From the IMG/VR virus record IMGVR_UViG_2883475777_000001: a stretch of 64,000 bases of DNA; one strand, written 5' to 3'. Within the stretch, counting starts at the first letter, position 1, and each line of letters begins with the position of its first letter. The notes under the pieces were generated by a model. It was not told the origin of the DNA. It saw only the letters and a list, made by a program, of their open reading frames with translations, and did no database searches. The position numbers were made by a program, and so were the translations under genes. Below are positions 29,395 through 49,581 of the stretch, piece after piece. The DNA is from a virus (taxonomy: Duplodnaviria; Caudoviricetes).

Positions 29395-29499
29395 GATTGC
29401 CCTTTCCAAACCAAAGGGTGTGAATGGTAAGAGCCGCCGGCGTGTTCGCTGCACGCCGACGGCTCGCTTTGGTTTCAGACGTTGGGTGGTTTCGACTGA

Positions 29500-29975: not shown

Positions 29976-30066
29976 CGTTTCGTCTCCCAATCGGATTGGT
30001 GTTGTTGCGTCGCGAACGCCGCGACGCGTGACAGGACAGTTACCTCGCGTTTTCGGCGTCATCAAG

Positions 30067-30381: not shown

Positions 30382-30484
30382 GTACAAGAAAGAAACTGTA
30401 GGTAAGTTTGCGACTGTTCCCGCGGGCGTCTCCTGAAGACGGTCGCGAGGTAGGACCCGTTCGCCCAACGGAGGCGATTCAAGG

Positions 30485-30717
30485 TTGCCACCAAGACTGC
30501 CAACATGCCCCCGTCTCTTTTTGGTGGCAATCTTGGCAGTGTTGGCAGCCTTCCCCAAAAACACCGGGAACCACGCGTTCCCTCTACGGCAATTTGGTGG
30601 CCATCTTCCTTTTTGGTGGCAGTGTTGGCAGTCTTGATTCGGTGAAAGATGTCCAAGGCTGCCAAGACTGCCAACTTATTGAGACGGGGGTTGGTGGCAG
30701 TCTTGGTGGCCATCTTG
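30485..30717. repeat. Cluster of TTGG(TG)GCAG-type short repeats in both orientations (candidate satellite ori iterons)
   Basis: Roughly a dozen copies, e.g. ttggtggcaatcttggcagtgttggcag at 30521, ttggtggcagtgttggcagtcttg at 30613, inverted ccaagactgccaac; overlaps the end of the helicase gene. Confidence 0.7.
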
Positions 30718-32286: not shown

Positions 32287-32434
32287 CGTTGGCCTCCGCT
32301 TGTTTCCGTCGCTTCTCGTAGATGTCGATCAATACGGCGGCCCAGGCGTCGGCGACTTCCTCAGGAAGCTTCTCCTTCGTATCCGGATCCTGCCGGCGCG
32401 CATCCTCAGCGCACGGTGTTGACTTGGTTCTCAT
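32267..32434 (-). CDS. Small hypothetical protein
   Basis: 55 aa (ADAWAAVLIDIYEK) overlapping the helicase start. Confidence 0.45.
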   Translation of the reverse strand: MRTKSTPCAEDARRQDPDTKEKLPEEVADAWAAVLIDIYEKRRKQAEANDGDAAA

Positions 32435-32559
32435 GACCCTCTCCTCGAAACCGCGAATTCTGCTGTCGCAGAGACAAATCGGCGTCGCGGCCTGCAAGTC
32501 CTGGTGCAAGCCACGATTCGCCACGCGGGTGCGGGCCAGTCCATTGAGTGCGGCGCGGA

Positions 32560-34401: not shown

Positions 34402-34981
34402 TGGTCGCCTCCTGCGGTTCGAGTTTGGTTCCCTGCGGGAAGAACCGGATGTAGGCGTACTCGTTCGGATCGGTGGACGGTTCGATCACGGTGACCAAGC
34501 CGAGCACGTCGAAGCTCGTCGAGAACCCCATCTTGTAACGAGCGGCTGCAACGCGACGCGCCTTCACGCACTGGCCGAACCGCAGGTTGTTGACCCAGCA
34601 GTAGTGCGTCCAGGACGACCATCGGTCCTGGTCGTTCTCATAGATCCACTCGGCGGCCGCGTCGATGTCCTCCTTGCTCCACTCGAGCCAATCGTTGCCC
34701 GTCCAGGTCATGCCTGGCCGCGCTCCCTTCGGCTGGACGATTCCTTTCTCGGCGAGCTGCCAGAGGTAGATGCCGTCGACGTACAACCCTCGGAGACGCA
34801 GTTCGCGGAATGCGCCTTCCGTCGACTTGGGATAGATCAGCGCCGTGCTGGAGTTGCGACTGCGCATCTTCTCGTCGTCGATGTTGGGTAGCAATTCCAT
34901 CAACTGATCGAAGTCCTCGCGGAGCCAATAGTGCTTCTTGTCGGCCCGGGCTTCGCGGTCCTGCTGTTCAGTTTGCCTCAT
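34385..34981 (-). CDS. Hypothetical protein
   Basis: 198 aa from ATG 34981 (ATGA-coupled to the sigma gene), overlapping the capsid gene start. Confidence 0.6.
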   Translation of the reverse strand: MRQTEQQDREARADKKHYWLREDFDQLMELLPNIDDEKMRSRNSSTALIYPKSTEGAFRELRLRGLYVDGIYLWQLAEKGIVQPKGARPGMTWTGNDWLEWSKEDIDAAAEWIYENDQDRWSSWTHYCWVNNLRFGQCVKARRVAAARYKMGFSTSFDVLGLVTVIEPSTDPNEYAYIRFFPQGTKLEPQEATNVHSD

Positions 34982-35487
34982 CCTTGTTCTCCTTCTTTGA
35001 TGATTGAGAGTTCGCGTTGGACGGTTCGCTTGGGAATTCCCGTCTCCCTGGCGATTTCGTCGACCGTGCAGCCGGCCATCCACAGCGTGCAGACTTCCCG
35101 CCTTCGTTCCGGCAGGCTGCCGAGATAGTCGCGAATCAACCCGTCGACGGCCGGGTCGCGACAACGCGAAGTGCGCGGCGTCGCATAACCCTCGATGTTT
35201 CCCGGCTGGTTGTCAGAGTCGATTCGTGAGACAGCCTTCGGCTCGCGTTTGCCTTCCGAGTAGAAGTCACGGAGGAGGTTGTACTGCCGGCTCGCCATGC
35301 GGTTCTTGGCAAGACCGACGTCCTTCGTCTCACACAAGACCTGCCAGCCGGCCAGAAACAGCTCCTGAATCGCATCCTCCGTGCGATGGTCGTCCCAGCC
35401 ATGCGGTCGCTTGGCCGCGATGAGTTTCTTGACCAACGCCTCCGCAAACGGGTGGAGATCATCGGGGGTGTCGAAGTAATCGGTCAT
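34978..35487 (-). CDS. Sigma-70/ECF-like factor (satellite)
   Basis: Region 2-like EDAIQELFL; region 4 LPERRREVCTLWMAGCTVDEIARETGIPKRTV. Confidence 0.7.
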   Translation of the reverse strand: MTDYFDTPDDLHPFAEALVKKLIAAKRPHGWDDHRTEDAIQELFLAGWQVLCETKDVGLAKNRMASRQYNLLRDFYSEGKREPKAVSRIDSDNQPGNIEGYATPRTSRCRDPAVDGLIRDYLGSLPERRREVCTLWMAGCTVDEIARETGIPKRTVQRELSIIKEGEQG

Positions 35488-35821
35488 CCAATCTCCTTTG
35501 ACCGGCAGGCTTCCTGCGTCTACTCAACTAATCCACGCGCCTCCGCGCAAACGCGCCATCGTAGACTCGAAATCTTCTTGAGACCTCGGCCTCCATCGGA
35601 TCGTCAGTTGTTTGCGTATTAGCTGCGCGGAAATATCACTGATTTTTCTCATGTCCGACGATTGAACTCGCGTTGCAGAATGATAAACTGGGCAATTTAG
35701 TGGAGGCGAGAGCAGTTCGCTGCCGATTCGTGGAGTCGCTGAAACTTTTTGGACTCCGAAGTCGTCTCTCCTTGATAGAGAGGTTTCCATTTTCCCTAGC
35801 CGGCCAACCACGAGGTGTCAA

Positions 35822-37807
35822 ATGCAAAGACGATTCACGGTTGTTATCACAACCTTACTGTTGACTCTCTCTTCTACTGTTTCTTATGCCCGCACCTGGA
35901 CCGAGCGGTCATCCGGACGAACAGTCAATGCAGATCTCGTCTCCTTTGCTGGCGACGTCGTAAAGATCAGACGCCAGAGCGATGGCAGAGTCTTCGCTGT
36001 CCCCGTCGAACGGTTGAGCGACGTTGACCGAACCTTTGTGGAATCTGCTTCTCAAACGCGCCCTGAGGCAACGCCCCGAAAAGGCAACGTTAGGTTTGTG
36101 GCGTTTAATGCGCAGGCCCAGGATGAGTACAGTGCTGAGCAACTCAATGCGTCGAAACGCATCGTCTGTGTCTGGAAAAAAGGCACGGCTCAAGCAGCCA
36201 TGAGGACGATTGAAGCGGTCGGTCTGAAGGTCACGTACCTTGGCTCTGCAATCCCGTTCGGCGTTTGCACCGGACAACTCACCGAGGACGGACTCAAGCG
36301 GCTGAGGAGCGACCCGTCGATCCAAAGTGTCGAACCTGACATCGAGTTGGTCGTTGACGACGCGCAGCCCGAAGTGCGGCAGATTACGGACGAAGTCTTG
36401 GCAGCATACGAACACGCTGGCCGTATGGTGTGCGTCTGGAAGAAGGGGAAGAAGAAGGAAAGTCTCGAGATGCTTGCGCAAATGGAGAAAGAAGGAAAGC
36501 TGCGCGTGATTCACAAACTCGAGACCACTCCAATCGCCTTCTGTGACTGGAAGCCGCCACTGCAGCAAGCAACGCTGGTGCAACTGCAAAAATCGCCAAT
36601 GCTGGATTACGTTGAACCAGATTTGACGCTGGTGAAGGACAACCCAACCAAAGGTCGAGAGATTGTATTCCCGAACGGGACACCCAAGACGGTCGTGTCT
36701 AAAGGCGTTGTACTGACCACGCCAGATGATCCAGAGATTGCCAAGCTCTGGGGAATGGATTCCATCAAGGCGAAGAAGGCGTGGACCTGTGCCAACCAAA
36801 CAGATGTTGTTGTGGCAGTGATCGATTCGGGCGTCGATTATAATCATCCGGACCTGAAGGCCAACGTGTGGGTCAATACGGGTGAGATCCCTAACAACGG
36901 AGTTGATGACGACAGTAACGGCCACAAGGATGACTACTACGGCCTGAACTTCACTCAACTTCCACCTACAACGGATACGCTCGATAGATACGGACACGGT
37001 AGCCACGTCGCCGGAACTATCGGTGCCGTTGGCAACAACAAGCTCGGAGTCGCAGGCGTCAATTGGCGTGTGCAGGTCATGGGACTCAAAGTTTTTGATG
37101 ACGCTGGAACTGCACCAGTTGGAAGCGCTCTAGCTTCTGCCATCGATTATGCTGTCGCGAGGAAAGTTCGCGTCATCAACTTGAGTCTTCGCTGGGGAAG
37201 TGAGCGGGCTTTCTTGAAACGTGTTATTGATGGAGCGGAAGACAAGGGCGTTCTGATTGTATGCTCAGCTGGCAATCTAAATCGTGGTGATGATCCACGC
37301 ACGATTGATAATGACGTCGTGCCCCAGTTCCCCGCGTCCTTTCCGAATGACAACGTCATCGCGGTTGCGAACATCACGGAGAGAGAACAGCTTAATGCGA
37401 GTAGTCATTTTGGATTGCGGAGCGTCGATTTGGGTGCTCCCGGGACAGACATTTACAGCACTGTGCCAACTTCTGTAAAGGCATCGGGTTATGACTCGTA
37501 CACTGGGACATCCATGGCAAGTCCGCATGTCGCAGGTGCGGCGGCGCTGATTTGGGGACATAAGAGGTATAGCAGTGGCGATTTCAAGGCGATTCGAAAG
37601 CTACTTCTAGACAATGCTCGCTCAATTCCCGCGTTGTCGGGAAAGTGCGTAACTGGCGGCACTCTTGACATTGGCTTCTTGTGTAAGCAGAGCCCGCCAC
37701 CTATCGGAAAGAAACCGCCAATCGTGATTTGCCCCCCACCTCGTTGTTACATCCCGTGTCCCCCGCGCCGCCACGTCTTTTATCGCTTCCGTTGTGGTAG
37801 TCGGTAG
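35822..37807 (+). CDS. Secreted S8 subtilisin-like protease with SHD1 domain and two I9-like prodomains
   Basis: Signal peptide; RTWT...G...A...SHD1 pattern; triad VAVIDSG, HGSHVAG, GTSMASPHVAG. Confidence 0.92.
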   Translation: MQRRFTVVITTLLLTLSSTVSYARTWTERSSGRTVNADLVSFAGDVVKIRRQSDGRVFAVPVERLSDVDRTFVESASQTRPEATPRKGNVRFVAFNAQAQDEYSAEQLNASKRIVCVWKKGTAQAAMRTIEAVGLKVTYLGSAIPFGVCTGQLTEDGLKRLRSDPSIQSVEPDIELVVDDAQPEVRQITDEVLAAYEHAGRMVCVWKKGKKKESLEMLAQMEKEGKLRVIHKLETTPIAFCDWKPPLQQATLVQLQKSPMLDYVEPDLTLVKDNPTKGREIVFPNGTPKTVVSKGVVLTTPDDPEIAKLWGMDSIKAKKAWTCANQTDVVVAVIDSGVDYNHPDLKANVWVNTGEIPNNGVDDDSNGHKDDYYGLNFTQLPPTTDTLDRYGHGSHVAGTIGAVGNNKLGVAGVNWRVQVMGLKVFDDAGTAPVGSALASAIDYAVARKVRVINLSLRWGSERAFLKRVIDGAEDKGVLIVCSAGNLNRGDDPRTIDNDVVPQFPASFPNDNVIAVANITEREQLNASSHFGLRSVDLGAPGTDIYSTVPTSVKASGYDSYTGTSMASPHVAGAAALIWGHKRYSSGDFKAIRKLLLDNARSIPALSGKCVTGGTLDIGFLCKQSPPPIGKKPPIVICPPPRCYIPCPPRRHVFYRFRCGSR

Positions 37808-37930
37808 CGGCTTGCAGAGTGACGACTAGTAGTGCTAGTTACGCCCAGCAGGAGCATTCCTGCTGGGCATTTCTTTTTGACTCAATGACGTTGATACAGA
37901 AATGCCGAATCGAACAGGTTGTTGACGAAA

Positions 37931-37958
37931 ATCCCGCCTCTTGAACGCCCTTCTTGAA
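37931..37958. other. att junction (right) of the inserted satellite
   Basis: Arm ATCCCGCCTCTTG 37931-37943; core TTGAA 37954-37958. Confidence 0.9.
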
Positions 37959-38942
37959 AGGCATGTTCAGGCAGCGGGCAATCTCGTTGAGAATCTCGTG
38001 CTTAAACTCGCCATAGGTCGTCGCGGGCTGTTCGGCTTCGAGCTGGCTCATCTTCCAACCGCCAGGCATGGTGAGCAGCGCCCGCTGTTCCAGTTCGATG
38101 GGCTCGAATGGTTCGGCGGCGTCCGCCTCGCCGTTGGCTGGCGCGTCGGTGTAGAGGATGCCGGCGAAGTCGGCAGCCGTTTCAGCGGCCGCAAGCACGG
38201 CCAGCGTGAATCGCCGCAACTGTGCAAACAGCGGCAGCGCCGGCATGATGTCGGGAATGCCGCGTGCCTGGCCGGGTCGGTCGAGGCGGAACAAGTGAAT
38301 CATCGCTTCGGCGGGCAGGCGGTCGTAGTCTCGCGTCAGCCGAACGGCTTCGCCTGGATGCGACTTGAGCACGTGGTATTCGATCGGATTGCCGGCGTCG
38401 TCAAACACGATGCCGTCGATGCCATTGGTGATCAAAGCATTCAAGTCGGGCGTGCAAACCTGGTCGGCTTCAATCAACCGCAGGTCGAGTTGGATCGCCG
38501 TCGGCAGCACGGGATTGCTTGTCAACACGGCGAACGCTTCACCGTCCTGGGCGCGCGACATTCGCATCGTGCGAAGTTTCTCGGGCAGGTTGACGGCTCT
38601 GGACCACGCGCCAAACTCTCGTTCGATCCGGCGATTGGCGTCGGCGTCATCCGTCAGTACCTGCAGCCGAGGTCCGGTGCCGATCGCGTCGTTGGCCAGC
38701 GTCAACACAATGCCACGGGCGTAGCTGTTGTTGGCTACCTCATAGCGTGCTCGATTACGCAGAATGCGACGTACCTCGGCGCTATTGGCCGCGTTGGCGG
38801 ACAGTCCATCCGCGCCGGCCCAATGCCGACGGTTATCGTCGTTGGTGACGGCCGCATCGTAGCGGGCGCGAAGCACTCGCGCGGCCCGCGTCAACGGGCG
38901 GCTAGTCGTCTTGGTGAACAGATTGGCGAGCCAACGGAACAT
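37954..38942 (-). CDS. Lambda-type portal protein, 5' half (interrupted gene)
   Basis: RARYDAA, LRNRARYEVANN, RPGQARGIP...EIARCLNMPF; joined to 27032-27506 gives 1464 nt = 487 aa + stop. Confidence 0.92.
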
Positions 38943-39140
38943 TTAGGATGCTCCTGGTGGCACGAGTTTGTTGAATGCAAGACCACGACGCTTTGACTTG
39001 GCTGCTTCCTTCGAGGCCAAGTACTTGTCGGCCGCGATTTGATCGGGGAGCTTGTGCTGCTCCACGGACCCAGCGTCGCCGGCAGCCTTGGCAGGCCCTT
39101 CGGCGTTTTCGCGGATCGTGTCTTTGAGGTCGTCGGCCAT
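38943..39140 (-). CDS. gpW-like head completion protein
   Basis: 65 aa immediately upstream of the portal (GSVEQHKLPDQI). Confidence 0.6.
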   Translation of the reverse strand: MADDLKDTIRENAEGPAKAAGDAGSVEQHKLPDQIAADKYLASKEAAKSKRRGLAFNKLVPPGAS

Positions 39141-39175
39141 TGAGGTCTCCAATCGCAAGCGAGAACAACGCCTGC

Positions 39176-39213
39176 CTATTTGAAGACCTACCCGGTCACT
39201 CTCGTGAATGACG
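39176..39213 (-). promoter_or_regulatory. Putative phage-sigma promoter (copy 1), upstream of the head-tail operon
   Basis: CGTCAT-N11-ACCGGGTAGGTC-NN-CAAATAG; matches 56029-56066. Confidence 0.55.
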
Positions 39214-39299
39214 AAAGACAAGGAGAAGAAGGCAGAATCGTGCTACATGTAGCGAGGTCGGAGCCTCAGGGCCATGAACGTAGCGGTCGACGAAGGAAC

Positions 39300-40130
39300 T
39301 TAGCGCAAGTCGGGTGTGCGCCTGGAGAGGACTGCAAGGACCTCGTCATGGCCCCATCTGGAACCGACCTCCTTGCGTCGATGTTGAGCCCACCCGCTTG
39401 CCGACATGTGATGCTTGGCATCAAGGATGGTGGCGTCCGCGCCACGGTTCAATAGAAACGACACCATGTTCGGCTTCGCTTCCCATGCCGCCCAGTGCAA
39501 TGCGGTCGCTTTCCCATCCGTCACGTTCACATCCAGACCGCTATCGAGCAAGTATTCCACGAGGGGTACACGATCGCAGACTGCGGCACACCTCAGCACA
39601 TCAAAGACTTGCTCATCGGAAAAGGATGCCGACTCAAGGTCCGCCCGCACTCGATCGAGTTGTCCAGCTCCGGCCGCGATTCGTGTCGATAGGATTTTCG
39701 CACCCTCTCTTACGAGCAGGTCGACAACTTCGACCATGCCGAAATGAACGGCGAAATCCAGCGGCGTGCCATCGGGGATGCCGGGATACGAGGCAACGGC
39801 TTCCATGTTCGCGCCGGCGTCGATCAAAACTTCCGCGACGCCCGCTTCTCCCAAACTCGCTGCGCCGTGAAGAGGCGTTTCGCCTGCGCCGGGAAGTCCG
39901 TCCACCGGCGCGCCCGCGTCGATCAGAATCTGTGCCAACTCCGCCTGCCGGCCATGATCCCAGAGTTGATTGAAGGGGCCATCGCTCAAGAAGTGAAGCG
40001 GCTCAGTCTGGCAGCTGTTCAGAATGCTGCCCCAGCGGATCGGCGTGGAAGCTAGTTTTGGGTTTTCATTCAGAAGCTGTCGGGCGCGTTCGACATCGCC
40101 AGCGACAATCGCCTTCTTAAGTTGACTCAT
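39300..40130 (-). CDS. Ankyrin-repeat protein
   Basis: GETPLHGAA, GTPLDFAV, GKATALHWAA repeats; 1 bp downstream of the MerR gene. Confidence 0.85.
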   Translation of the reverse strand: MSQLKKAIVAGDVERARQLLNENPKLASTPIRWGSILNSCQTEPLHFLSDGPFNQLWDHGRQAELAQILIDAGAPVDGLPGAGETPLHGAASLGEAGVAEVLIDAGANMEAVASYPGIPDGTPLDFAVHFGMVEVVDLLVREGAKILSTRIAAGAGQLDRVRADLESASFSDEQVFDVLRCAAVCDRVPLVEYLLDSGLDVNVTDGKATALHWAAWEAKPNMVSFLLNRGADATILDAKHHMSASGWAQHRRKEVGSRWGHDEVLAVLSRRTPDLR

Positions 40131-40131
40131 T

Positions 40132-40548
40132 TCATTGGGCCTTCAATCCTGCCACAACCTGGCAGCAGTCTGATTTCTTTTGAGTCTGGCATTCCTCGAG
40201 CGCGTTCTTCAACACTTTGCGGACGTGCCGAAGATCCTTCAGCCGCTGCTCGATGTCCGCCAGTCGCTCCTCAATCAGGCTCTGCACGTTGCCGCACGTC
40301 GGAATGCCGCCTTCGTCGTCGGAGAGCAACGCCTTCACGTCCTCGAGCGTAAACCCGATCGCTTGTGCCGCGCGGATGAACTTCAGCTTGTTGAGCGACT
40401 CACCGCTGTACAACCGGTAGTTTCCCTGGCTGCGATTCTCGGGTTCAACGAGACCGATTCGCTCATAGTAGCGAACAGTCGTTGTCGGAATGTCAGCCGC
40501 TTTGGCCAACTGGCTGATGGTGTATTCGTCGGGCATGGCAATGCTCAA
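40132..40548 (-). CDS. merR: MerR-family heavy-metal-responsive regulator
   Basis: TISQLAK...TVRYYERIGL, GNYRLY; Cys85/Cys120/Cys129 have the 35/9 spacing of Hg-type MerR C82/C117/C126. Metal specificity not proven. Confidence 0.85.
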   Translation of the reverse strand: MSIAMPDEYTISQLAKAADIPTTTVRYYERIGLVEPENRSQGNYRLYSGESLNKLKFIRAAQAIGFTLEDVKALLSDDEGGIPTCGNVQSLIEERLADIEQRLKDLRHVRKVLKNALEECQTQKKSDCCQVVAGLKAQ

Positions 40549-40591
40549 ATCGCCCTTGGAGAACTGATTTTCAGTTTTTTGGCAAATCCGC

Positions 40592-40623
40592 TTGACCTTG
40601 CACTTAGGTGCAACCTCGATAAT
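40592..40623 (+). promoter_or_regulatory. MerR-type promoter with extended spacer and dyad operator
   Basis: TTGACC (40592-40597), 20-nt spacer containing the dyad TTGCAC-TTAG-GTGCAA, GATAAT (40618-40623). Confidence 0.8.
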
Positions 40624-40664
40624 AGACGCAGATGACCGGATTCACAACATAGGGCTGAGAAGCC

Positions 40665-41855
40665 ATGAACCAGAACGCGGCAACCGCAACCAGACAGACG
40701 TGCCCGACTTGTGGCCAAAAAGCACGACGTGTTTCGCTTCACACGATTCGCAGCCTGTTGAAGGAACCCGCTGCATCAGGATTCCAAAACGGCGAATCGT
40801 GTTGCCAGACCGATGGAACGGGATGTCACGCAATCACCGAAGACACCGGCTGGCGTTTCTGTGACTCGCCGGCATGCGACGTTGTGTACTTCGCAGAGCA
40901 GAGTGACGATACGTTTGTCAAATCACAATTGAAAGTTGACGTGGGCGTCAAGGAGACAGCTGGCGACCGCCCTCTCTGTTATTGTTTTGACCACTCGGTG
41001 ACCAGCATCAAGCGTGAGCTGGAGGCAACGGGAGAATCGACGGCGGTCGAGGATATCCGCTCCCGGATGAAAGGAGAGGGGTGCCATTGTGAAGTGACCA
41101 ACCCCAGCGGATCCTGTTGCCTCGGAAGCGTGGCCAAGGGAATCGAAATCGCGAAGGGTGAACTGGTTACGACGGAGTCGCACATTGATTCCAAACCTCC
41201 TTCGGGCCGGGGAGAGAAGATCGCCAAGGTCGGGACCATCGTCTCTGCGATCATGGCATCGAGTTGCTGCTGGCTCCCGTTGGTCCTATTGGCCGTAGGC
41301 GTATCCGGTGCCGGCATCGCGGCCGCGCTCGAAACCTATCGGCCCCTGTTCATGCTCATCACATTCGGGTTTCTGGGAGCCGCCTTCTACTTCACTTACC
41401 GGCCTCGGCCAGCAAGCGATGCGAACCAGGACGCGTCGTGCTGCGACTCGACGATGGTAGGCGAATCAGACTGCTGTGCGCCCGAAACGACGTCGCGCTG
41501 GAGTATGGCCGCGATGAACAAAGTCATGCTGTGGGTCGTCACTGGGCTGGCGATCGCGTTCCTGGCCTTCCCAAGCTATGTCGGTCTGCTCTTCGGTGCA
41601 GGACACAACGTGGTCGTAACCGATGATATGAACCGCGCGGTTCTCACAATTGAGGGCATGACTTGTGAAGGATGCGCGACGACAGTTGCTGAAGCGATCA
41701 AACGTGTGGACGGTGTGATCGCGGTGGAAGTGAACTACGAAACGAAGCAAGCGACCATCGGGGCGGAAGACTGCTGTCCCGTGCCGATTAAGGAAATCCA
41801 GTCTGCTCTCGCCAAGGCCGGTTACGCCGGCGAGCCAATCGACCCAACGGACTAA
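40665..41855 (+). CDS. CopZ-like Zn/[2Fe-2S] domain + MerT transporter + HMA domain fusion
   Basis: CPTCG, FCDSPAC, LCYCF, CHCEVTNPSGSCC; MerT TM ASSCCWLP; HMA GMTCEGC. Confidence 0.85.
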   Translation: MNQNAATATRQTCPTCGQKARRVSLHTIRSLLKEPAASGFQNGESCCQTDGTGCHAITEDTGWRFCDSPACDVVYFAEQSDDTFVKSQLKVDVGVKETAGDRPLCYCFDHSVTSIKRELEATGESTAVEDIRSRMKGEGCHCEVTNPSGSCCLGSVAKGIEIAKGELVTTESHIDSKPPSGRGEKIAKVGTIVSAIMASSCCWLPLVLLAVGVSGAGIAAALETYRPLFMLITFGFLGAAFYFTYRPRPASDANQDASCCDSTMVGESDCCAPETTSRWSMAAMNKVMLWVVTGLAIAFLAFPSYVGLLFGAGHNVVVTDDMNRAVLTIEGMTCEGCATTVAEAIKRVDGVIAVEVNYETKQATIGAEDCCPVPIKEIQSALAKAGYAGEPIDPTD

Positions 41856-41882
41856 CCAATTCATCCGAAAGTGATTCACAAC

Positions 41883-43145
41883 ATGAGCCGTTTTGCTTGC
41901 ATAGCCCTGCTTTGCCTGCCCGTCGCAATCGTTGGATGCGGCCGCACGAGTACGGAGAATCCAAACGGTACGTCGTCAACCGCGTCGTCCGAATCGACTG
42001 TCCACATTCACATCAGCGGCTTCAAGAAGAGCAAAAGCGGCGCGACGTGAATGTTGTGACCGAACACGGTCAAAGAGGCCCTGGAAGGGTCTGACGCAGT
42101 CACAATGGTTGAGATGCATCTCGATCGAGACGTATTCGATGTCACGTTTGATTCATCGAAGGCGCAAGCGTCCGATCTCGTCGCCATCATCGCCGAGGCC
42201 GGCTACTCGGCGAGAATTATCACGGGCGATACGTCCGAACCTACCGTTGCCGATGTCGACTATCCCGCGCTTTTGCCTTCCGTATTCGACCGGGCGAGAT
42301 CCGCCGGCAAACCGGTCGTGTTGTACTTTGGGGCGTCATGGTGCGTTCCTTGCCGCCGCATGTCCCAAGAAACGTTTGCAGATCCGACGGTAAAAAGCCT
42401 GCTCGACCGCTGCATCTTTGAGAAGATCGACGCCGACGAGCGAGCCGACTTGTCAAAACAGGCGGGTGCGAGGGCTCTCCCCGACGTGCGATTCGTTTCC
42501 GCCGACGGGAAGGAAATGAAGAGGATCACCAGCTTTCTCGGCCCGAACCTGTTCGCGGACGAGCTGCGCCAATTGCTAGGTGATGAGCCTGTCGACAACA
42601 CAGTCGAAGAAGGCAAGAGCGTCGAGTTGCATGATCTCTCGCCCGAAGCAGACCAGCTGCGCGAGGCCTTCGTGAAGGCCAGCGGTAAAGTGAGAGTCGT
42701 AATGCTTGTCTCGCCTGGCTGACCGATGTGCGTCGAAGGGGCCCGTGCGGTCCATAGGCAGGCTACCAGCCAGATTGAAAGTCCCGACTTGGTGATTTTC
42801 GTTGTGTGGTTGCCGCGATATCCGGGGGACAACCGCGAGAAGGCCGTCACCGCCACCAGGAACGTATCTGACTCGCGGGCTCACCACTTCTGGGACGCCG
42901 AAGCCATGCTGTCAAAGCGTTACGGACGGATCTTGGGTCTGCCGGAAGGTAAACAATTCGCGTGGGACACATACATGGTGTTCGACGCGGATGCGACTTG
43001 GATCGACACACCGCCGACGCCCGCCAACTGGATGCATCAAATGGGCGGGGCACTTGGCCGCAGCCATCCGCGTTGGCTTGATCCTGATAGATTCAAGGGC
43101 TCGCTAATTGAATTGCTAAAAGAGCCAGACCGCAATCAACCTTGA
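41883..43145 (+). CDS. Predicted triple-selenocysteine lipoprotein: HMA(UxxU) - thioredoxin(WCVPC) - Trx-fold(UxxC), 420 aa
   Basis: One continuous frame with TGA at 42048, 42057 and 42720; reads GAT-U-ML-U-PNTVKEAL and VSPG-U-PMC; lipobox IVGC. Confidence 0.8.
42069..42095 (+). promoter_or_regulatory. Candidate bacterial SECIS hairpin for U56/U59
   Basis: GTC-[AAAG bulge]-AGGCCCT-GGA-AGGGTCT-GAC; loop G is 24 nt after the second UGA and 33 nt after the first. Confidence 0.6.
42739..42753 (+). promoter_or_regulatory. Candidate SECIS hairpin for the third UGA
   Basis: GGGCC-CGTGC-GGTCC; loop G is 23 nt after UGA 42720-42722. Short stem. Confidence 0.4.
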
Positions 43146-43150
43146 TTCAT

Positions 43151-43342
43151 TCAGACGCGATTTGGAGGAGCCTGGACCGGCGACTCGTAAGTCACGATCT
43201 TGCGGCTGCAATGCCGGCACTCTTTGCGGCGGCGAATACGGCCGTCACGCAGCGGTTCCGTATGCGTGGTGTAGAAATGCCGGCAGCCGCACCGTGGGCA
43301 TTCGATGCCGCGATTGGGTTGTTGTGAGCCGGCCTGATTCAT
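43151..43342 (-). CDS. Small Zn-ribbon protein (Ogr/Delta- or NrdR-like)
   Basis: CPRCG...RRRKECRHC...TYE; ATGA-coupled to terL. Confidence 0.7.
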   Translation of the reverse strand: MNQAGSQQPNRGIECPRCGCRHFYTTHTEPLRDGRIRRRKECRHCSRKIVTYESPVQAPPNRV

Positions 43343-45609
43343 TCGCGACGCCTCCGCTGCAGTTCGGCGAAGCTGACACGCTCGCGTTTGGCGGGACCAA
43401 ATGCGCTCCCTGTTCCAGCGAGCACCGCCCCCTGAATTGAGGCGGCCACAGCGCAGCCGACTAGACAATCAAACCAGTGGTTGTCGCCGCGTTCTGGTCG
43501 CATCTTCCATTCGTCAACCGTGCGGCCGCGGCCTTCGGTCTTCACTCGATACTCGGCCGACAAGTGCTCGGCAAAGAGACGATGCTGGTCGGCGCTTTCG
43601 CCAAACAACGACAGGCAGCCACGGTCACCCATCGGCACCGCCAGCCGAGCGTGCACGAATGTTTTCCAGAAGTTGGTGTCGTAGACGACGTGGCGCACAG
43701 CACGCTTGCCGGCCACATTGGGCATCCGCCAGTTGTGTCCGACCCGGTCGCCCGGCCGGCGCTTGTACTCGGAGAAAGGCTGACTCGATGCGCCAACAAA
43801 CCGGCCGTGACTGGGAATGATGACGCCGGCGTGTGCGGATTGCCGGCAGAATTGATAGACCACGTCAGTCGATGCACCCCAGTTGGCGTCCACCAGGCAG
43901 CGTTCGATTCGCAGCATGGCACCATCATCGCGCCGCCATTCGCGACCGAGATGCGACGTCGTCAACTGTTCGAGTCCCGCATAGATGGACCCTTCCAAAC
44001 CACTCGCCTTCGTCGCCAGCGGCAGCGTGAGCCGGGCATCTCGCAGCGTAAAGTAAGGCCGCTGTTGGTCAGGAAACTCGCCATAGTCGACGACATAGCC
44101 GGTGAAATCGTCTTCCCACGCTGCGACGACGTAGAACAGTAAGTTCCCTTGAACGTCCACAAACATCGTCAGATGGTTGCAGCCAATTGGCAGCACGCCT
44201 CGCTGCATGCGATTGGTCTTGGCGGCGATTTGGTCAGGCGACAGTTCGTCTGCTTCGGACGTTTCCTCGGGTAGTGGCTCGTTCTGGTACTCTGCGAAGA
44301 ACGCCGCCTCGTCTTGCAACTTGAGGTTCATCGCGTGCTGGATCGCCGACTCTTCATCGTGGTTGAATCGTTCTTGCCAAGCCACGTCAGCGCCGGCATC
44401 CATTGCTTCCCGATTGGCCGCGTAGAACTCGGTCGCCAGTCGGATGTCGCCGTGGGCGCGGAGGCTCTCGCCGCGAAGTTCGGCGTAACGCTGCCACAGC
44501 TTCTCATCGGTGGGAAACGAATACACCATCTTCGTGCGCTCGCCGTTCCATTCCGGATGCTTGTCGCGGCATAAAATGTTGTCAGCCATGTCGCTGGGGC
44601 GGATTACCGTACAGGGCATGATGCCGCTGATCTTCTTGCCGGGACCAGCCAGACCCAGGATAGCGCCTGCGAGTATTCCCTCGCGCGTCGCGCATTGCGA
44701 CAACGACCGAGCCGACTCGTCGGTCTGCGGATCGTCGAGCACGACCAGTGAGGGGCGAACGGTATGTCCGTCCGAACGCTTGTATTTCATGCCGCGAATG
44801 CGGCCAGTAATGCCAGCGACCTTGATGATCGCCCCGCTCGCGGCGCTGCCGGGCATCGAAGGAAGCACGACCTCGCGGGCCGTCCAACCGATGTGCGTTC
44901 GCTCGCCCTTGAAGAGTTGACCGTTGCAGCGATTGGCGATTCCATCGAGGCACTGAATCGGATAGACGACCTCGGGGAAGTCTTCGAGCAACAGGTCGTT
45001 GCCGTCGAGTTCCATCTTGATCGAGTCAAGCATATCCATCGCATGCCCTTCGTCGCTGCCGATGAGACACACGAACTCGCGGTGGCCGTTGAGCACGGCC
45101 CAGATGCACGCGCATTCGCAAATCGTCGTCTTGCCCGAACCGCGAGGCATCGCCATCGCGAATAGTCCGCCGCGCAGCACGGCCTGCTCGATCTTGCCGA
45201 TCACTTTCAAGTGGTCGGGCGACCACGGGAGGTGGAACGTCAGCGGAAAGTAGGTCTCGCAGAAGAATCGAAAATCGGATGCTGCCCGCGCTTTGCGGTC
45301 CCCGCTGACGACCTCGGGCAGTTCACCAATGTCGCGGCCGGCAATGGCAAGCGCGACATTGCGAGCGCGAGCGCGATCCTTCAGCTTTTCATACGGATCG
45401 CCGTCGGGCTCTGGGCGCGGCGTGTGCCGAATCTCCACGAGCCACGCGACGTACCGCAGCAAGTCTACGAAACGTGCATCGCCGATTCGCATGCCGGCCC
45501 GCGTTCGATGGCGATGGAGCTGCCGTTCATTGATGACCTCGCCCAACGGCGTCGAGTTCAACAAGCGGCACAATTCGCTCGGTCGTAGTTTCCGCGGGTC
45601 AGTTGCCAC
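43339..45609 (-). CDS. Terminase large subunit (gpA-like) with N-terminal HTH extension
   Basis: Walker A AMPRGSGKT, Walker B VVLDDPQ, nuclease FVDVQ, C-terminal DNHWFDC. Confidence 0.9.
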   Translation of the reverse strand: MATDPRKLRPSELCRLLNSTPLGEVINERQLHRHRTRAGMRIGDARFVDLLRYVAWLVEIRHTPRPEPDGDPYEKLKDRARARNVALAIAGRDIGELPEVVSGDRKARAASDFRFFCETYFPLTFHLPWSPDHLKVIGKIEQAVLRGGLFAMAMPRGSGKTTICECACIWAVLNGHREFVCLIGSDEGHAMDMLDSIKMELDGNDLLLEDFPEVVYPIQCLDGIANRCNGQLFKGERTHIGWTAREVVLPSMPGSAASGAIIKVAGITGRIRGMKYKRSDGHTVRPSLVVLDDPQTDESARSLSQCATREGILAGAILGLAGPGKKISGIMPCTVIRPSDMADNILCRDKHPEWNGERTKMVYSFPTDEKLWQRYAELRGESLRAHGDIRLATEFYAANREAMDAGADVAWQERFNHDEESAIQHAMNLKLQDEAAFFAEYQNEPLPEETSEADELSPDQIAAKTNRMQRGVLPIGCNHLTMFVDVQGNLLFYVVAAWEDDFTGYVVDYGEFPDQQRPYFTLRDARLTLPLATKASGLEGSIYAGLEQLTTSHLGREWRRDDGAMLRIERCLVDANWGASTDVVYQFCRQSAHAGVIIPSHGRFVGASSQPFSEYKRRPGDRVGHNWRMPNVAGKRAVRHVVYDTNFWKTFVHARLAVPMGDRGCLSLFGESADQHRLFAEHLSAEYRVKTEGRGRTVDEWKMRPERGDNHWFDCLVGCAVAASIQGAVLAGTGSAFGPAKRERVSFAELQRRRRE

Positions 45610-45805
45610 GCCCCATCTCCTTCACGAGCCATGCGGCGTAGTGCATGAGGTTGACCGTGCCGTCGGGATTCTGCGGCGCGCCGGCCTCCAGGTCGGCGGC
45701 GATCTGTTCGACGGGGACGCGGACCTTGGCGGCGGCCGAAAGCAGCTTGGCAGCCTGCTCGACGGAGAGGCGGTTTGGGTCCACGGGCGCATTCTCAGCG
45801 TTCAT
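45599..45805 (-). CDS. Terminase small subunit-like HTH protein
   Basis: 68 aa, LSVEQAAKLLS...GAPQNPDGTVNLMHYAAWL; overlaps the terL start. Confidence 0.6.
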   Translation of the reverse strand: MNAENAPVDPNRLSVEQAAKLLSAAAKVRVPVEQIAADLEAGAPQNPDGTVNLMHYAAWLVKEMGRGN

Positions 45806-46086
45806 CGCCCGCCCCCTTCCGGCACAGCTCTCCGCGTGGGCCAACGGGTGGCCACGTCGCGTACCGCGCCGGCGATTGGCCATTCGTGCGACCACCGGCG
45901 TAACACGTCGCGACACGTGGCCAACCTGATCGACGCGACGCCAACCTTGCCCCGTTTGACTTCCGAGAAAACCTGCTGAATTCCGGCGGAATGTTCCGCG
46001 ACCGCGCTTGATGTTCCTCGAAACGCATGGCTCATGTGTGACTGTCGTAACGCGAATCCCAACCACCAACCAACCGGAGACCAACC

Positions 46087-46314
46087 ATGAACGCCCGCAA
46101 AAACAAGAAGCCGAAGCTGACCGCCGAAGCCGCCTACGAGAACGCGCACATCGTGGCGCAAGACCTTGTCCAAAGAATCGGCGAGCTGCTTTTCGACCTG
46201 CCCGCGCCCGGCAACGACGAGCACCCGATCAACTGGGCCGACGTCGGCAGCGTCAACGAGGTCAACAACCGCCTGTCCTCGGTCGTCGCCTTTCTCGAAG
46301 GCACCGAAGAGTAA
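46087..46314 (+). CDS. Small accessory protein
   Basis: 75 aa, opposite strand to the late genes; homolog in the satellite. Confidence 0.7.
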   Translation: MNARKNKKPKLTAEAAYENAHIVAQDLVQRIGELLFDLPAPGNDEHPINWADVGSVNEVNNRLSSVVAFLEGTEE

Positions 46315-46341
46315 CCCCCAACCACGAAAGAAAACCCAACC

Positions 46342-46593
46342 ATGACCATCGACGACTTGATCCAACGCTTGGAAGAGTACCGCGACGCCCTGGGCGGCGA
46401 CGCCGAAGTCCGCCTGATGACCCAGCAGAATTGGCCGTTTGAAAACGAGATCGTCGGCCTCGCTTCGGGCGAAGAGATCAACGAGCCCGACGACGGCGAA
46501 GACGAAGACATGGACGAAGACAGCGTGGTCTTCATCATCGAAGGCCAGCAGCGCTGCTACGGATCGAAGCGGGCCTGGGAGGTCGCGTACTAA
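46342..46593 (+). CDS. Small acidic accessory protein
   Basis: 83 aa; AEVRLMTQQNWPFEN. Confidence 0.65.
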   Translation: MTIDDLIQRLEEYRDALGGDAEVRLMTQQNWPFENEIVGLASGEEINEPDDGEDEDMDEDSVVFIIEGQQRCYGSKRAWEVAY

Positions 46594-46689
46594 AGCCGAA
46601 ACGCCCACGCGGGCGTCGCGGCGGGTGGTACCCGCCGCCTGATGATGGCAGCCCAACCATCGCGAACGTTTTTCACAAGGAGCCAGATC

Positions 46690-47091
46690 ATGGCAACGAA
46701 GAAGACCACCGCGAAAAAGACCCCTGCGAAGAAGGCCGCTGCCCCGAAGGCAACCCGCAGCGCCAAGTCGACCAAGGCCGCGCCGGCGAAGAAGGCTCAG
46801 CCCGCGAAGCCGGCGGCGAAGAAGACGAAGCCCGCCGCGTCGAAAGGCGAGGCCAAGGCCAAGAAGCTCAGCGCCATCGACGCGGCCGCGAAGGTGCTGG
46901 CCACGGCGAAGGAACCGATGAACTGCAAGGAGTTGATCGAGGCGATGGCCACGAAGAAGCTCTGGACCAGCCCCGGCGGAAAGACGCCGCACGCCACGCT
47001 GTACAGCGCGATTCTGCGGGAGATCAAGACGAAGGGGAAGGACGCCCGTTTCAAGAAGACCGAGCGCGGCCAGTTCGCCGCGAATGGCTAG
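46690..47091 (+). CDS. Winged-helix (HARE-HTH-like) protein with histone-H1-like Lys/Ala N-terminus
   Basis: KKTTAKKTPAKKAAAPK..., then LSAIDAAAKVL...WTSPGGKTPHATLY. Confidence 0.8.
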   Translation: MATKKTTAKKTPAKKAAAPKATRSAKSTKAAPAKKAQPAKPAAKKTKPAASKGEAKAKKLSAIDAAAKVLATAKEPMNCKELIEAMATKKLWTSPGGKTPHATLYSAILREIKTKGKDARFKKTERGQFAANG

Positions 47092-47113
47092 GCCACGCGA
47101 CGGGTTCCGACCC

Positions 47114-47148
47114 AACGCCCCACGTTCGCCACGTTGGGGCGTTTTCTC
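47114..47148 (+). terminator. Probable intrinsic terminator
   Basis: AACGCCCC-ACGT / ACGTTGGGGCGTT hairpin followed by TTCTC, just after the wHTH gene. Confidence 0.5.
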
Positions 47149-47295
47149 GTTGGCGGCCTCGGTGGCCAATACCAACGGCCCGACGCGACACGGCGCAATC
47201 GTCGCGACGAGCCTATTGATGTTTCCGCCCGTTTGTGGCTCCTGTGGTTGGGAGATTGGATGTGCCAGCCGCTTACAAACCGAAAGGAACGAATC

Positions 47296-47529
47296 ATGAA
47301 GACCTACCTTGTCGCCACTCTCGCCCGCTATGTGCTGGTCGAGGCCGACGACGAAACGCAGGCACGCGAACTTGGCCGCCCCGCGCTGCACGATCTGTAC
47401 GCCGACCTGCGCCAGCGATTGGGCAGGGAGGTGCCGATCGAAATCCGCACCGTCCGCGAGGCGACTGAAGATGAGATCGAACTTTGGACGTGGCATCATG
47501 AAATGCTCGCAAGGGAGAAACAACAATGA
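47296..47529 (+). CDS. Small hypothetical protein
   Basis: AAGGA RBS, ATG 47296, 77 aa. Confidence 0.55.
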   Translation: MKTYLVATLARYVLVEADDETQARELGRPALHDLYADLRQRLGREVPIEIRTVREATEDEIELWTWHHEMLAREKQQ

Positions 47530-47756
47530 CCTCGATTCCAAGGGCGGGTGACCGCATCCGACTCATCTCCATGCAAGACGACCCCGCCCCGGTCCAGGTG
47601 GGACAGGTGGGAACGGTCGTTTCTGTCTCCCGCCACGGCGGTGGGGAAGACGCTTGGCATCAGGTCGACGTCGCCTGGGATAACGGTCGGACGCTCATGC
47701 TTGTCTCCCCACCCGACCGGTTCGCGATCTTGGAATCCCAGACCGACACGCCGTAG
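47526..47756 (+). CDS. DUF4314-family protein
   Basis: GDRIRLISMQDDPAP...GTV...VAWDNGRTLML. Confidence 0.75.
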   Translation: MTSIPRAGDRIRLISMQDDPAPVQVGQVGTVVSVSRHGGGEDAWHQVDVAWDNGRTLMLVSPPDRFAILESQTDTP

Positions 47757-47821: not shown

Positions 47822-48187
47822 TCAACCGCCCACCTCCTTCGCGACGTGGGCCAACGTGGGCGACCAGTCGGGACCGAGATACCGAACGGGCTTGCCCAAC
47901 TCGATGGCGATTCGGATTTCCGCTTGCACCCCCGCACTCGCCTCCCAACCATCGAGCGTCAGCACGACCACTTCGTTGCAACATTCAAGATGGTGCCGGT
48001 CGAACGGTTCCCAGAATCGCCAGTCAGTCGGCAGCCCATGCGTGCAGATGCAGTGGCCGTGAGCGATCGGCGAAAAAACGGCGTGGCCAAGCCGCATTAG
48101 CTTCGCCGCCGCGCGGCACGCGTCACGAAAACGCAATTCGCGCACCGCAACATCGGGATGCGAATACGGGCTGGCCAGGTAGATCAT
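47822..48187 (-). CDS. DUF1937 / nucleoside deoxyribosyltransferase-like protein
   Basis: MIYLASPYSHPD...FSPIAHGH...SAGVQAEI. Confidence 0.75.
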   Translation of the reverse strand: MIYLASPYSHPDVAVRELRFRDACRAAAKLMRLGHAVFSPIAHGHCICTHGLPTDWRFWEPFDRHHLECCNEVVVLTLDGWEASAGVQAEIRIAIELGKPVRYLGPDWSPTLAHVAKEVGG

Positions 48188-49581
48188 GCAGAAGCCTCCT
48201 GCGCGGGCGCTTCCACACGCTCGGCCTTCTGGCCGGTGAACTTCTCCCACCGCTGCACGATGACGTCGCAATACGGCGGGTCGAGTTCCATCAAGAACGC
48301 TTTACGCCCTGTTTGTTCGCAGGCGATGAGCGTTGAACCACTGCCGCCGAACAGGTCGAGCACGTTCTCGCCGGCCAGCGACGAGTACTGCAGCGCCCGC
48401 ACCGTCAACTCGACGGGCTTCTCGGTCAAGTGAACCATGCTCTGCGGGTTGACCTTCTTCACGGGCCAGACGTCGGGCACATTATTCGGACCGAAGAACC
48501 GATGCGCCGCGCCTTCGCGCCAGCCGTAGAAACACCACTCGTGGTCGCCCATGAAATCCTTGCGCGTCAGGACGGGATGCAGCTTGTGCCAGATCACGGC
48601 TTGCGAGAAGTACATGCCGCAGGCCTTGAAGACCGGCGGATAGTTGGCGACGTTGGCGTAGCCACCCCACACGTAGAAACCATGTCCCGGCAACAGCACG
48701 CGGGCGATGTTACCGAACCAAGCGTGCAGCATTTCATCGAATGCTTCATCGCTCACGAAGTCGTTCGCCAGTGGACGATCTTTGGCTCGCATCTTTTTCT
48801 GCGTCGGCTTCGCCTTTTCGGGATGGCGGGCGAGGTCGAACTTCTGGTGATGCTCGTTGCCAGCCTTCGTCTTGCCGCGAGCCACGTCGAACGAGGCGTT
48901 GCCTTGACCTGCCTTCAGCTTCTTGGCCGCCCCGTCGTTCGAGAAAGAGCTGAGGCCGGCGGCAATCGCGTTGTTGCTGCGCGGCTCCACTTTGACGTTG
49001 TACGGCGGGTCGGTCGAAACCAAGTGGATGCTCGCGCCGTCGAGCAGACGGTCCACATGCTCGGCGTTGCTGCTGTCGCCACAGAGCAACCGGTGGTCTC
49101 CGAGAATCCAAAGGTCGCCCAGCTGCGTGATCGCGTCGTCGGGCGGCTCGGGCACGTCGTCGGGATCGGTTAGTCCATCCTGAACGCCGGGATCGAGCAG
49201 CTTCGCCAACTCTTCCTGGTCGAAGCCGAGCAGGCCCAGGTCGTAATTGCACGACTGCAGCTCGCCGAGTTCGATGGGCAGCAGATCGTAGTTCCATTCC
49301 GCCAGCTCGGCCGTCTTGTTGTCGGCGATGCGGTAGGCCTTGATCTGCTCGGGCGTGAGGTCTTTCGCGGTGTGGACCGGCACCTTCTCCAGGCCCAGCT
49401 TCAGCGCCGCCTTGTATCGGGTGTGACCGCAGATAATCACACCCTCGGTATCAACCACAATTGGCTGGCGGAAACCGAACTCGCGGATCGAGGCGGCCAC
49501 CGCATCGACGGCGTCGTCGTTGAGCCGAGGGTTTTTTTCGTAGGGGCGAATGTCCGTGATCGGACGCAATGTGACTTGCAT
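48184..49581 (-). CDS. ParB-like nuclease domain + N4/N6 DNA methyltransferase
   Basis: PYEKNPR, FGFRQPIVVD, GHTR; TDPPYNV; HLTEKPVEL; VLDLFGGSGST. Confidence 0.9.
   Translation of the reverse strand: MQVTLRPITDIRPYEKNPRLNDDAVDAVAASIREFGFRQPIVVDTEGVIICGHTRYKAALKLGLEKVPVHTAKDLTPEQIKAYRIADNKTAELAEWNYDLLPIELGELQSCNYDLGLLGFDQEELAKLLDPGVQDGLTDPDDVPEPPDDAITQLGDLWILGDHRLLCGDSSNAEHVDRLLDGASIHLVSTDPPYNVKVEPRSNNAIAAGLSSFSNDGAAKKLKAGQGNASFDVARGKTKAGNEHHQKFDLARHPEKAKPTQKKMRAKDRPLANDFVSDEAFDEMLHAWFGNIARVLLPGHGFYVWGGYANVANYPPVFKACGMYFSQAVIWHKLHPVLTRKDFMGDHEWCFYGWREGAAHRFFGPNNVPDVWPVKKVNPQSMVHLTEKPVELTVRALQYSSLAGENVLDLFGGSGSTLIACEQTGRKAFLMELDPPYCDVIVQRWEKFTGQKAERVEAPAQEASA

Follow-up and report, generated by a model that had tools for sequence, protein, structure and literature searches.

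The subject of this analysis is an open reading frame (ORF) with three in-frame TGA codons, which lies on the plus strand at 41883-43145 of a 64,000-nucleotide stretch of Caudoviricetes DNA (IMG/VR record IMGVR_UViG_2883475777_000001; hereafter, the window) and belongs to a prophage of a bacterium with a closed genome. The original prediction, made by a model from the letters alone, held that this ORF hides a metal-binding lipoprotein with three selenocysteine (Sec, U) residues. Its account of the frame proved accurate: 420 codons run from ATG 41883 to TGA 43143-43145, interrupted by TGA three times and by TAA or TAG not at all. The internal TGAs stand at Cys positions (42048-50, codon 56; 42057-59, codon 59; 42720-22, codon 280), and the claimed WCVPC motif and IVGC lipobox are also present. 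Standard ORF calling breaks the same interval into pieces of 59, 205 and 139 amino acids. The features of the ORF are as follows.

41883-43145, plus strand: three-TGA ORF, 420 codons, with lipoprotein signal, HMA (UxxU), thioredoxin (WCVPC) and TlpA-like (UxxC) domains
41883-41939, plus strand: signal peptide with lipobox IVGC (residues 16-19; Cys19), read from the sequence
42048-42059, plus strand: TGA-ATG-TTG-TGA, that is U56-M-L-U59, at the metal-binding CxxC position of the HMA domain (sequence and alignment)
42057-42072, plus strand: hairpin A, UGACCG-AACA-CGGUCA; the 5' arm starts with UGA59; invariant in six homologs
42076-42092, plus strand: hairpin B, AGGCCCU-GGA-AGGGUCU; best candidate selenocysteine insertion sequence (SECIS) for UGA59 and possibly UGA56
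42339-42353, plus strand: WCVPC active site (residues 153-157) of a DsbD-gamma/TlpA-type thioredoxin domain (Pfam Thioredoxin_2/_7 and Thioredoxin)
42630-43127, plus strand: C-terminal TlpA/ResA/CcmG-like thioredoxin-fold domain, residues ~250-415 (AlphaFold2 and Foldseek)
42720-42722, plus strand: TGA for U280, first position of UxxC in the C-terminal thioredoxin-fold domain, aligned with Cys of homologs
42739-42753, plus strand: hairpin C, GGGCC-CGUGC-GGUCC; SECIS candidate 16 nt after UGA280

Using Pfam with Cys put at the TGA positions, we detected an HMA domain at residues 51-108, Thioredoxin_2/_7 at residues 135-227 (Thioredoxin_2, 43.6 bits against a cut-off of 27) and a weak Redoxin match at residues 267-370. 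The ORF is a predicted lipoprotein by the motif [LVI][ASTVI][GAS]C, and the lipobox is kept in all homologs. In the HMA domain, U56 and U59 (context SGAT-U-ML-U-PN) align with both Cys of GMTCxxC in the HMA domains of the adjacent gene and of a relative, and a seven-residue insertion, FKKSKSG, precedes the metal motif. The middle WCVPC domain also matches positions 454-572, the C-terminal region, of the NCBIfam DsbD model. At the sequence level the C-terminal domain is only weakly related to Redoxin (26.8 bits, with no single stretch passing) and has conserved motifs of its own, AWDxY and PPxPxxWMHQ. Its AlphaFold2 model adopts a thioredoxin fold (predicted local distance difference test score (pLDDT), 91.9) with the redox motif, VSPG-U-PMC, at the N terminus of helix 1. 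The best Foldseek matches in the PDB were Mycobacterium tuberculosis DsbE/DsbF, ResA, CcmG and TlpA (E values of 3e-6 to 1e-3), with Sco1 lower.

A family with Sec codons

Homologs of the three-TGA ORF are stored in databases as fragments, and an exhaustive phmmer search was used to collect them. Its top matches were fragments that end at the TGA positions, covering residues 78-279, 282-412 and 1-55 (the last at 93% identity). Translation of contigs through TGA gave read-through homologs in five metagenomic lineages with ~38-93% identity, in which the TGAs and their flanking motifs are kept (labels beginning with L denote contigs or loci and those beginning with G denote genomes).

L040: ~93% identity (93% DNA identity), partial
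L037-39: ~70% identity
L055-57: ~53% identity
L041-42: ~48% identity
L058: ~38-40% identity

All five lineages retain the lipobox, GAT-U-x-x-U-P, WCxPC and SP-x-U-x-x-C. The full set of three TGAs is present in L037-42 and L055-58 (L040 being partial); by site, TGA56 and TGA59 are conserved in L037-42, L046, L047, L055 and L058, and TGA280 in L037, L041, L045, L021, L055 and L058. Because the same TGAs recur in homologs down to ~38-48% identity, the pattern is far beyond chance, and four further bacterial families of the order include genomes with the same three TGAs. A scan of the viral_contigs set found no relative.

Homologs with Cys in place of the TGAs had been proposed as a check on the Sec reading, and they exist: 13 uninterrupted homologs have an invariant Cys opposite U280, within the motif SPxCPxC, and U56 and U59 fall on the HMA CxxC. 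Among homologs of the C-terminal domain, UxxC and CxxC forms alternate. Measured against L037, the ratio of nonsynonymous to synonymous substitution rates (dN/dS) was 0.097 between residues 60 and 279 and 0.086 between residues 281 and 420; these low values show that what follows each TGA evolved as translated protein under strong purifying selection.

Genome searches that read through stops gave related modules in several arrangements, including two-domain HMA(UxxU)-thioredoxin lipoproteins in G204 and G239, a C-terminal UxxC domain as a separate gene in G045 and, in G141, the same domain joined to a zf-CopZ/MerT/HMA transporter. G163, G189, G321, G330 and G130 have Cys forms; in G163, as in database proteins, the C-terminal domain is linked to MerT-like membrane parts.

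The RNA downstream of the TGAs carries hairpins of the kind expected of a bacterial SECIS. The original prediction placed hairpins with a loop G 23-33 nt downstream; we found conserved hairpins whose loops lie ~21-32 nt downstream of the TGAs, each with G in the loop (GGA; CGUGC). The stem of hairpin B is separated by 16 nt from UGA59 and by 25 nt from UGA56, and that of hairpin C by 16 nt from UGA280. Hairpins A and B were compared across six homologs of 43-93% identity; the pairs of hairpin B are kept in all six, two of them through one-sided changes. Relative to shuffled sequences, hairpin B had a z-score of -2.5 and the region downstream of UGA56/UGA59 a z-score of -2.8. Hairpin C consists of 5 bp with an xGUxx-type loop, is kept in five homologs and includes one compensatory pair (G-C to U-A). 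In the bSECISearch consensus the loop lies 16-37 nt from the UGA and has G among its first bases. Hairpin B is in that range for both UGA56 and UGA59, and it may serve both, or hairpin A may serve UGA56.

Codon usage points to the same region. In codons 59-71, 36 of 38 degenerate codons for the same amino acid were identical to those of four homologs, compared with 269/603 (45%) elsewhere, which indicates an RNA-level constraint on codons 59-71, where a bacterial SECIS should lie.

Because the TGAs are conserved, Cys and Sec form a pair at the same site, selection downstream is purifying and the RNA shows SECIS-like constraint, we conclude with high confidence that the three TGAs are Sec codons and that the gene family is a genuine bacterial selenoprotein family, as far as this can be read from sequence. 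At the level of the family, the Sec-coding claim of the original prediction thus holds.

Three observations on the homologs are recorded here in their own right. L058 (ENA ERZ27251149) keeps the three TGAs and has a true stop directly after its lipobox (LVGCG*), owing to a sequencing error or a disrupted copy. The two-domain homolog P0093 (ENA ERZ23498364 and ERZ27279858) is printed with Trp at both UxxU positions (SGVT-W-LS-W-PD), owing either to a true Trp variant or to a table-4 gene call that gave W for TGA. In L046 (G204:C36, a SelB-positive genome), on the minus strand, a second lipoprotein ORF directly follows the two-domain UxxU lipoprotein; it contains two in-frame TGAs in the motif VEGLT-U-GAVSGLG-U-GS and may be another uncurated two-Sec protein.

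A mer-type cassette in a prophage cargo slot

The three-TGA ORF begins 27 nt downstream of the end of a transporter gene and is the last gene of a four-gene cassette, the other features of which are as follows.

39222-43150, no strand assigned: four-gene cargo cassette (ankyrin, merR, merT-HMA and three-TGA ORF), ~3.9 kb, delimited by synteny
39300-40130, minus strand: ankyrin-repeat protein, 276 amino acids, a conserved cassette member (Pfam Ank/Ank_2)
40132-40548, minus strand: divergent MerR-family metal-sensing regulator (Pfam MerR_1 and MerR-DNA-bind)
40592-40623, plus strand: candidate MerR-type promoter, with -35 TTGACC, a 20-nt spacer and -10 GATAAT, read from the sequence
40665-41855, plus strand: zf_CopZ-MerT-HMA fusion transporter, 396 amino acids, all-Cys form (Pfam zf_CopZ, MerT and HMA)

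The MerR context proposed in the original prediction is supported, with a divergent MerR-family gene upstream, a Cys triad resembling the Hg type and a candidate long-spacer dyad promoter. The regulator has Cys85, Cys120 and Cys128/129, with spacings of 35 and 8-9, which we take to resemble the triad of Hg-MerR. The spacer of the candidate promoter contains a perfect 6-bp dyad, TTGCAC-N4-GTGCAA (40598-40613), which is conserved in L055 and in the G204 locus L046. At the cassette promoter of the 48%-identity homolog (L041, 4250-4285), TTGACT is followed by a different dyad, CCGTA...TACGG, which resembles the Tn501/Tn21 mer operator. The fusion transporter scored 110 bits with NCBIfam CopZ_Nterm_CC, 106 bits with MerTP_fusion and 47.4 bits with Pfam MerT (cut-off 32.9), and has a CC motif in its first transmembrane helix and a GMTCEGC motif. 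Contig L055, from a metagenome, carries the complete cassette in the same gene order between non-phage flanks, with an ankyrin homolog at the same place that is 67% identical over 267 residues.

The original prediction also described the gene as prophage-borne, and the cassette does sit in a prophage, in a slot between the terminase and portal genes.

37839-38942, minus strand: lambda-type portal ORF, 367 amino acids (Pfam Phage_portal_2)
38943-39221, minus strand: prophage orf92, left slot border, directly upstream of the portal ORF and kept beside the portal gene in related prophages
43151-43468, minus strand: prophage Zn-ribbon ORF, 105 amino acids, right slot border, beside TerL in eight related prophages
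43339-45609, minus strand: large terminase TerL, gpA type (Pfam GpA_nuclease)
25042-27075 and 32560-34401: protease-capsid fusions, two genes of 677 and 613 amino acids
27556-29454: serine recombinase of the prophage
48184-49581: ParB-methylase of the prophage
50-55 kb: primase-polymerase, helicase and RusA of the prophage

TerL homologs are present in 41 of 151 genomes of the host family, the closest at ~88-92% identity and including those of the SelB-positive genomes G066, G088 and G107. Across five related prophages with TerL at 89-92% identity, terL, the Zn-ribbon ORF, orf92 and the portal gene are contiguous, with a gap of ~140 bp between the Zn-ribbon ORF and orf92; the 3.9-kb cassette of the window sits exactly between these two. 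The same slot holds other cargo in two relatives, namely a HigB-like toxin and a 371-amino-acid helix-turn-helix protein in L064 (G107:C331, 6903-9275) and a 291-amino-acid ORF in L066 (G469:C110, 7769-8942). None of the 11 other genomes of the host genus contains the cassette. Judged from sequence, the three-TGA ORF has the attributes of prophage cargo (a moron): it lies inside the prophage, in a slot that varies among relatives, and is predicted to have its own MerR promoter.

Two further observations concern the prophage. Its segment from 25042 to 38942 contains the two protease-capsid fusions, the serine recombinase and a subtilase beside a short portal ORF. A type II hammerhead ribozyme (RF02276; 51.7 bits, gathering score 37) lies inside the prophage at window positions 46594-46657 on the plus strand, antisense to an unannotated 579-amino-acid ORF on the minus strand (45802-47541).

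Relation to known systems

The three-TGA ORF scored below every curated NCBIfam cut-off tested, and its fusion of a lipoprotein signal with HMA(UxxU), thioredoxin and TlpA-like(UxxC) domains and three Sec is an architecture for which there is no NCBIfam model. The closest curated case is NF041115, the 'UxxU_metal_bind' (seleno)protein, which appears in PMC9312934 and PMC13188914 as the 'putative mercuric reductase' UxxU family of the Olavius symbiont. Both share an HMA fold in which the two metal-binding Cys are Sec, with UGAs 9 nt apart; NF041115 is a stand-alone protein of ~74 residues, whereas the ORF here adds a lipoprotein signal, the FKKSKSG insertion, two thioredoxin-fold domains and a third Sec. 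Its match to NF041115 (33.8 bits over residues 52-114; cut-off 95) places it outside that family. The UxxU motif, presented in the original prediction as rare, is therefore less unprecedented than was implied, since NF041115 already curates a UxxU HMA family.

MerP (TIGR02052) offers a functional parallel as an extracytoplasmic HMA protein beside MerT under MerR, with a presumed role in binding Hg(II) first and passing it on to MerT. MerP is a soluble single-domain protein with CxxC (GMTCxxC), whereas the ORF here is predicted to be lipid-anchored, has UxxU (SGATUMLU) and comprises three domains; at 35.3 bits (cut-off 92.55) it is not a member of TIGR02052.

The C-terminal domain shares with TlpA, ResA, CcmG and DsbE the fold and a redox motif placed where helix 1 begins. 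It differs from them in its weak Redoxin similarity, in its own motifs and in its regular fusion or adjacency to MerT-like and HMA modules. Sec forms of this kind, a 'Redoxin family protein' with UxxC and a 'Thiol:disulfide interchange protein' with UxxC, are listed in PMC13188914. The WCVPC domain resembles the C-terminal thioredoxin domain, associated with periplasmic reducing power, of DsbD (gamma) and of NF045694 TsoB (rhodanese/DsbD fusion-like), but the ORF lacks the DsbD membrane part and scored 47-49 bits, far under the full-length cut-offs.

NF045683, a MerT/CopZ fusion-like selenoprotein, and the 'putative mercuric transport protein' selenoprotein likewise place Sec in mer-type metal traffic, and the merT-HMA gene upstream of the three-TGA ORF is the same kind of MerT/CopZ fusion as NF045683. 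The cassette transporter is, however, all-Cys (59 bits against 375), and Sec sits instead in its partner lipoprotein. Eukaryotic SelL has a UxxU motif in a thioredoxin-like fold that is able to form a diselenide, and a SECIS in its 3' untranslated region; it differs from the present case in being eukaryotic and in having the motif in a thioredoxin fold rather than at an HMA metal site.

Curated Sec motifs of HMA type comprise NF041115, a UxxC cation ATPase and the MerT and MerT/CopZ selenoproteins, according to PMC9312934 and PMC13188914, where UxxC selenoproteins of thioredoxin, Redoxin and TlpA-like type appear too, and the entries examined in the table of the latter, a 2026 review, are families with one or two Sec. 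Three Sec in one protein would exceed those one or two per family and would put selenium directly where a mer-type pathway first captures its metal. Because standard gene callers split it into three ORFs, the gene is systematically mis-annotated. With two UGAs only 9 nt apart, the gene is also a naturally occurring case in which to study how bacterial SECIS elements serve such a pair. Our literature search for a phage-borne bacterial selenoprotein gene returned no report, and the two selenoproteome reviews (PMC9312934 and PMC13188914) do not mention phages.

Sec machinery and the fate of the gene in the host

The original prediction had set the sel genes of the host as a check, with their absence to count against it. 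We found no SelA, SelB, SelD or tRNA-Sec in the host genome (one closed contig of 6.50 Mb, 99.5% complete), and neither SelB (0/12) nor SelD (0/12) in the genomes of its genus. The best SelB profile match in the host was EF-Tu (153 bits; cut-off 242), compared with 301-407 bits for SelB in relatives; a search for the SelB winged-helix domain in the host genome gave nothing, and tblastn with the C-terminal 300 residues of SelB from three relatives gave neither a host match nor selB remnants. One SelA-like ORF reached 148 bits (cut-off 268) and is a low-scoring paralog; SelA of relatives scored 545-576 bits and stands beside selB where both could be located on one contig. For SelD, the best host score was 62.6 bits (cut-off 125), with 262-404 bits in relatives.

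The tRNA searches agreed. An Rfam tRNA-Sec scan that scored 150 of the 978 host candidates gave none at or above the threshold, the best being a tRNA-Ser; aragorn called 81 tRNAs in the host, none with a UCA anticodon; and blastn with the conserved tRNA-Sec of relatives found no match in the host genome. In the control genomes G045 and G051, tRNA-Sec scored ~70 bits and was called as tRNA-SeC by aragorn. A tRNA search of the window found none. Within the family, SelB is present in 47 of 81 genomes. All five other genomes of the order with TGA-carrying homologs have SelB and SelA, leaving the host as the only TGA carrier found without Sec machinery. We therefore regard it as highly probable that the three-TGA gene is not decoded in this host.

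Taken together, the likely explanation is that an intact gene of a selenoprotein family, part of a mer-type cassette, was carried by a phage into a host that lacks Sec, where it is silent. In a Sec-competent cell, the product would be a periplasm-facing lipoprotein that joins a MerP-like HMA domain (UxxU) to a DsbD-gamma/TlpA-type WCVPC domain and a TlpA-like UxxC domain, and an Hg-type MerR would control a cassette in the order merR, merT-HMA and three-TGA gene. Outside the cytoplasm, the lipid-anchored diselenol site would capture Hg(II) or a different soft metal, which the MerT-HMA transporter would then receive; both thioredoxin-fold domains would keep that site reduced or join in ligand exchange. 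We hold the chances for and against this metal relay to be about even. A physical partnership with the transporter is supported by Rosetta-stone fusions of the C-terminal domain: in G141 its partner is MerT-HMA, while G163 and database proteins have it joined to MerT-like membrane parts. The selenium-based metal sponge of the original prediction thus survives as what the gene would encode in a Sec-competent cell and fails for the present host, which has no Sec machinery.

As to its route, a temperate phage lineage with hosts in Sec-positive as well as Sec-negative genera of the family probably captured the cassette in its terminase-portal slot and then delivered it into a Sec-negative genus. 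Because the host is without SelA, SelB, SelD and tRNA-Sec, RF2 should end translation at codon 56, and the gene would be an untranslatable passenger that has not yet decayed. The 93% DNA identity to L040 and the intact copy are consistent with recent arrival. On this explanation, a temperate phage would have moved a selenoprotein gene into a genus unable to decode Sec, and the host would make concrete how dependence on the Sec trait limits the horizontal spread of selenoprotein genes.

Several observations weigh against parts of this account. The host copy is undecayed, with motifs, hairpins and promoter intact, which fits recent arrival and also continued use, and low-level SelB-independent read-through may occur in the host. 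At the RNA level, hairpin C is by itself not energetically significant against shuffles, the hairpins at the first site are invariant and hence show no covariation, and the P value for the codon-identity difference (Fisher P = 2e-10) is overstated because the sequences are related. In the full-length AlphaFold2 model the domains are confident (pLDDT 86.6), but at a predicted template modelling score of 0.60 the domain arrangement and any convergence of the three motifs are unreliable and not interpretable. The regulator scored 109.7 bits with the TIGR02051 MerR model, under its cut-off of 150.85, with ZntR and CueR close behind. There is no MerA in the cassette, and the best MerA-like ORF of the genome (397 bits; cut-off 454) lies ~0.7 Mb away; the metal handled by the cassette may be Hg(II) or another one.

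Among the other explanations, it is improbable that the host locus acts as separate pieces, namely a 55-amino-acid lipopeptide and products of internal starts at 42105-42722 (205 amino acids) and 42726-43145 (139 amino acids). Gene callers do predict such ORFs here and in homologs, and an ATG follows each TGA. The internal products would nevertheless be without signal peptide and HMA metal ligands and would miss the leading redox residue of UxxC, a residue that does not vary in the family, and the 205-amino-acid piece would be a thioredoxin domain without a metal site. Furthermore, the ATG after U280 encodes the M of UPMC and is not universal (UPGC in L041 and UEPC in G045).

Still less probable is a recent loss of Sec decoding in the host lineage, which would make the gene a relic of a Sec-positive past. 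The patchiness of the Sec trait in the family (47/81 genomes) shows that losses happen, but all 12 genomes of the genus are without SelB and SelD, no selB remnants were found, and the cassette is missing from the 11 other genomes and occupies a phage cargo slot that related prophages leave empty.

We consider it very improbable that the host itself reads the three UGAs as Sec and, when induced by metal, produces a working metal-binding lipoprotein with three Sec, as the intact gene, SECIS-like hairpins and MerR promoter and the presence of a SelA-like ORF could suggest. Five independent searches that succeed in relatives gave no SelB, SelD or tRNA-Sec, the SelA-like ORF is the low-scoring paralog described above, and the whole genus is negative. 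An equally small probability attaches to a full-length protein made in the host without SelB or tRNA-Sec, for example by a hairpin-stalled ribosome that accepts near-cognate Cys or Trp at UGA. If such SelB-independent decoding were true, hosts that lack the Sec trait could make use of a selenoprotein gene brought by a phage.

Reading of UGA as a standard amino acid, whether through stop-codon reassignment in phage or host or a suppressor tRNA giving Trp, Cys or Gly, is more improbable again. The Trp pair of P0093 would fit it if real and not TGA rendered as W under table 4. Against it, there is no UCA-anticodon tRNA in genome or window, TGA also serves as the terminal stop of the ORF, past which no sequence conservation is seen, the TGAs occur only at Cys positions of redox or metal motifs, and every other TGA-carrying genome has Sec machinery. 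An ordinary pseudogene, in which three Cys codons independently became nonsense codons, is hardly credible: each step from TGC or TGT to TGA is a single-base change, but the candidate is ruled out because at least five diverged lineages, as well as genomes from four further families of the order, have the same TGAs, and downstream omega is ~0.09 with RNA-level constraint after the TGAs.

Some features of tRNA and Sec genes were observed in passing. The host genome has a tRNA array at C1:726249-730102, with 26 tRNA genes in 3.9 kb including a tRNA-Ile(UAU), and a second array of seven tRNAs at C1:3314592-3315243; neither includes a UCA anticodon. tRNA-UAU in degenerate tRNA clusters of planctomycetes is mentioned in PMC4807772. 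Among the relatives, the SelD genes of G013, G019, G023, G039, G042, G046 and G051 each have one in-frame TGA, corresponding to the known Sec-containing SelD, and there is one TGA in the SelA match of G163 as well.

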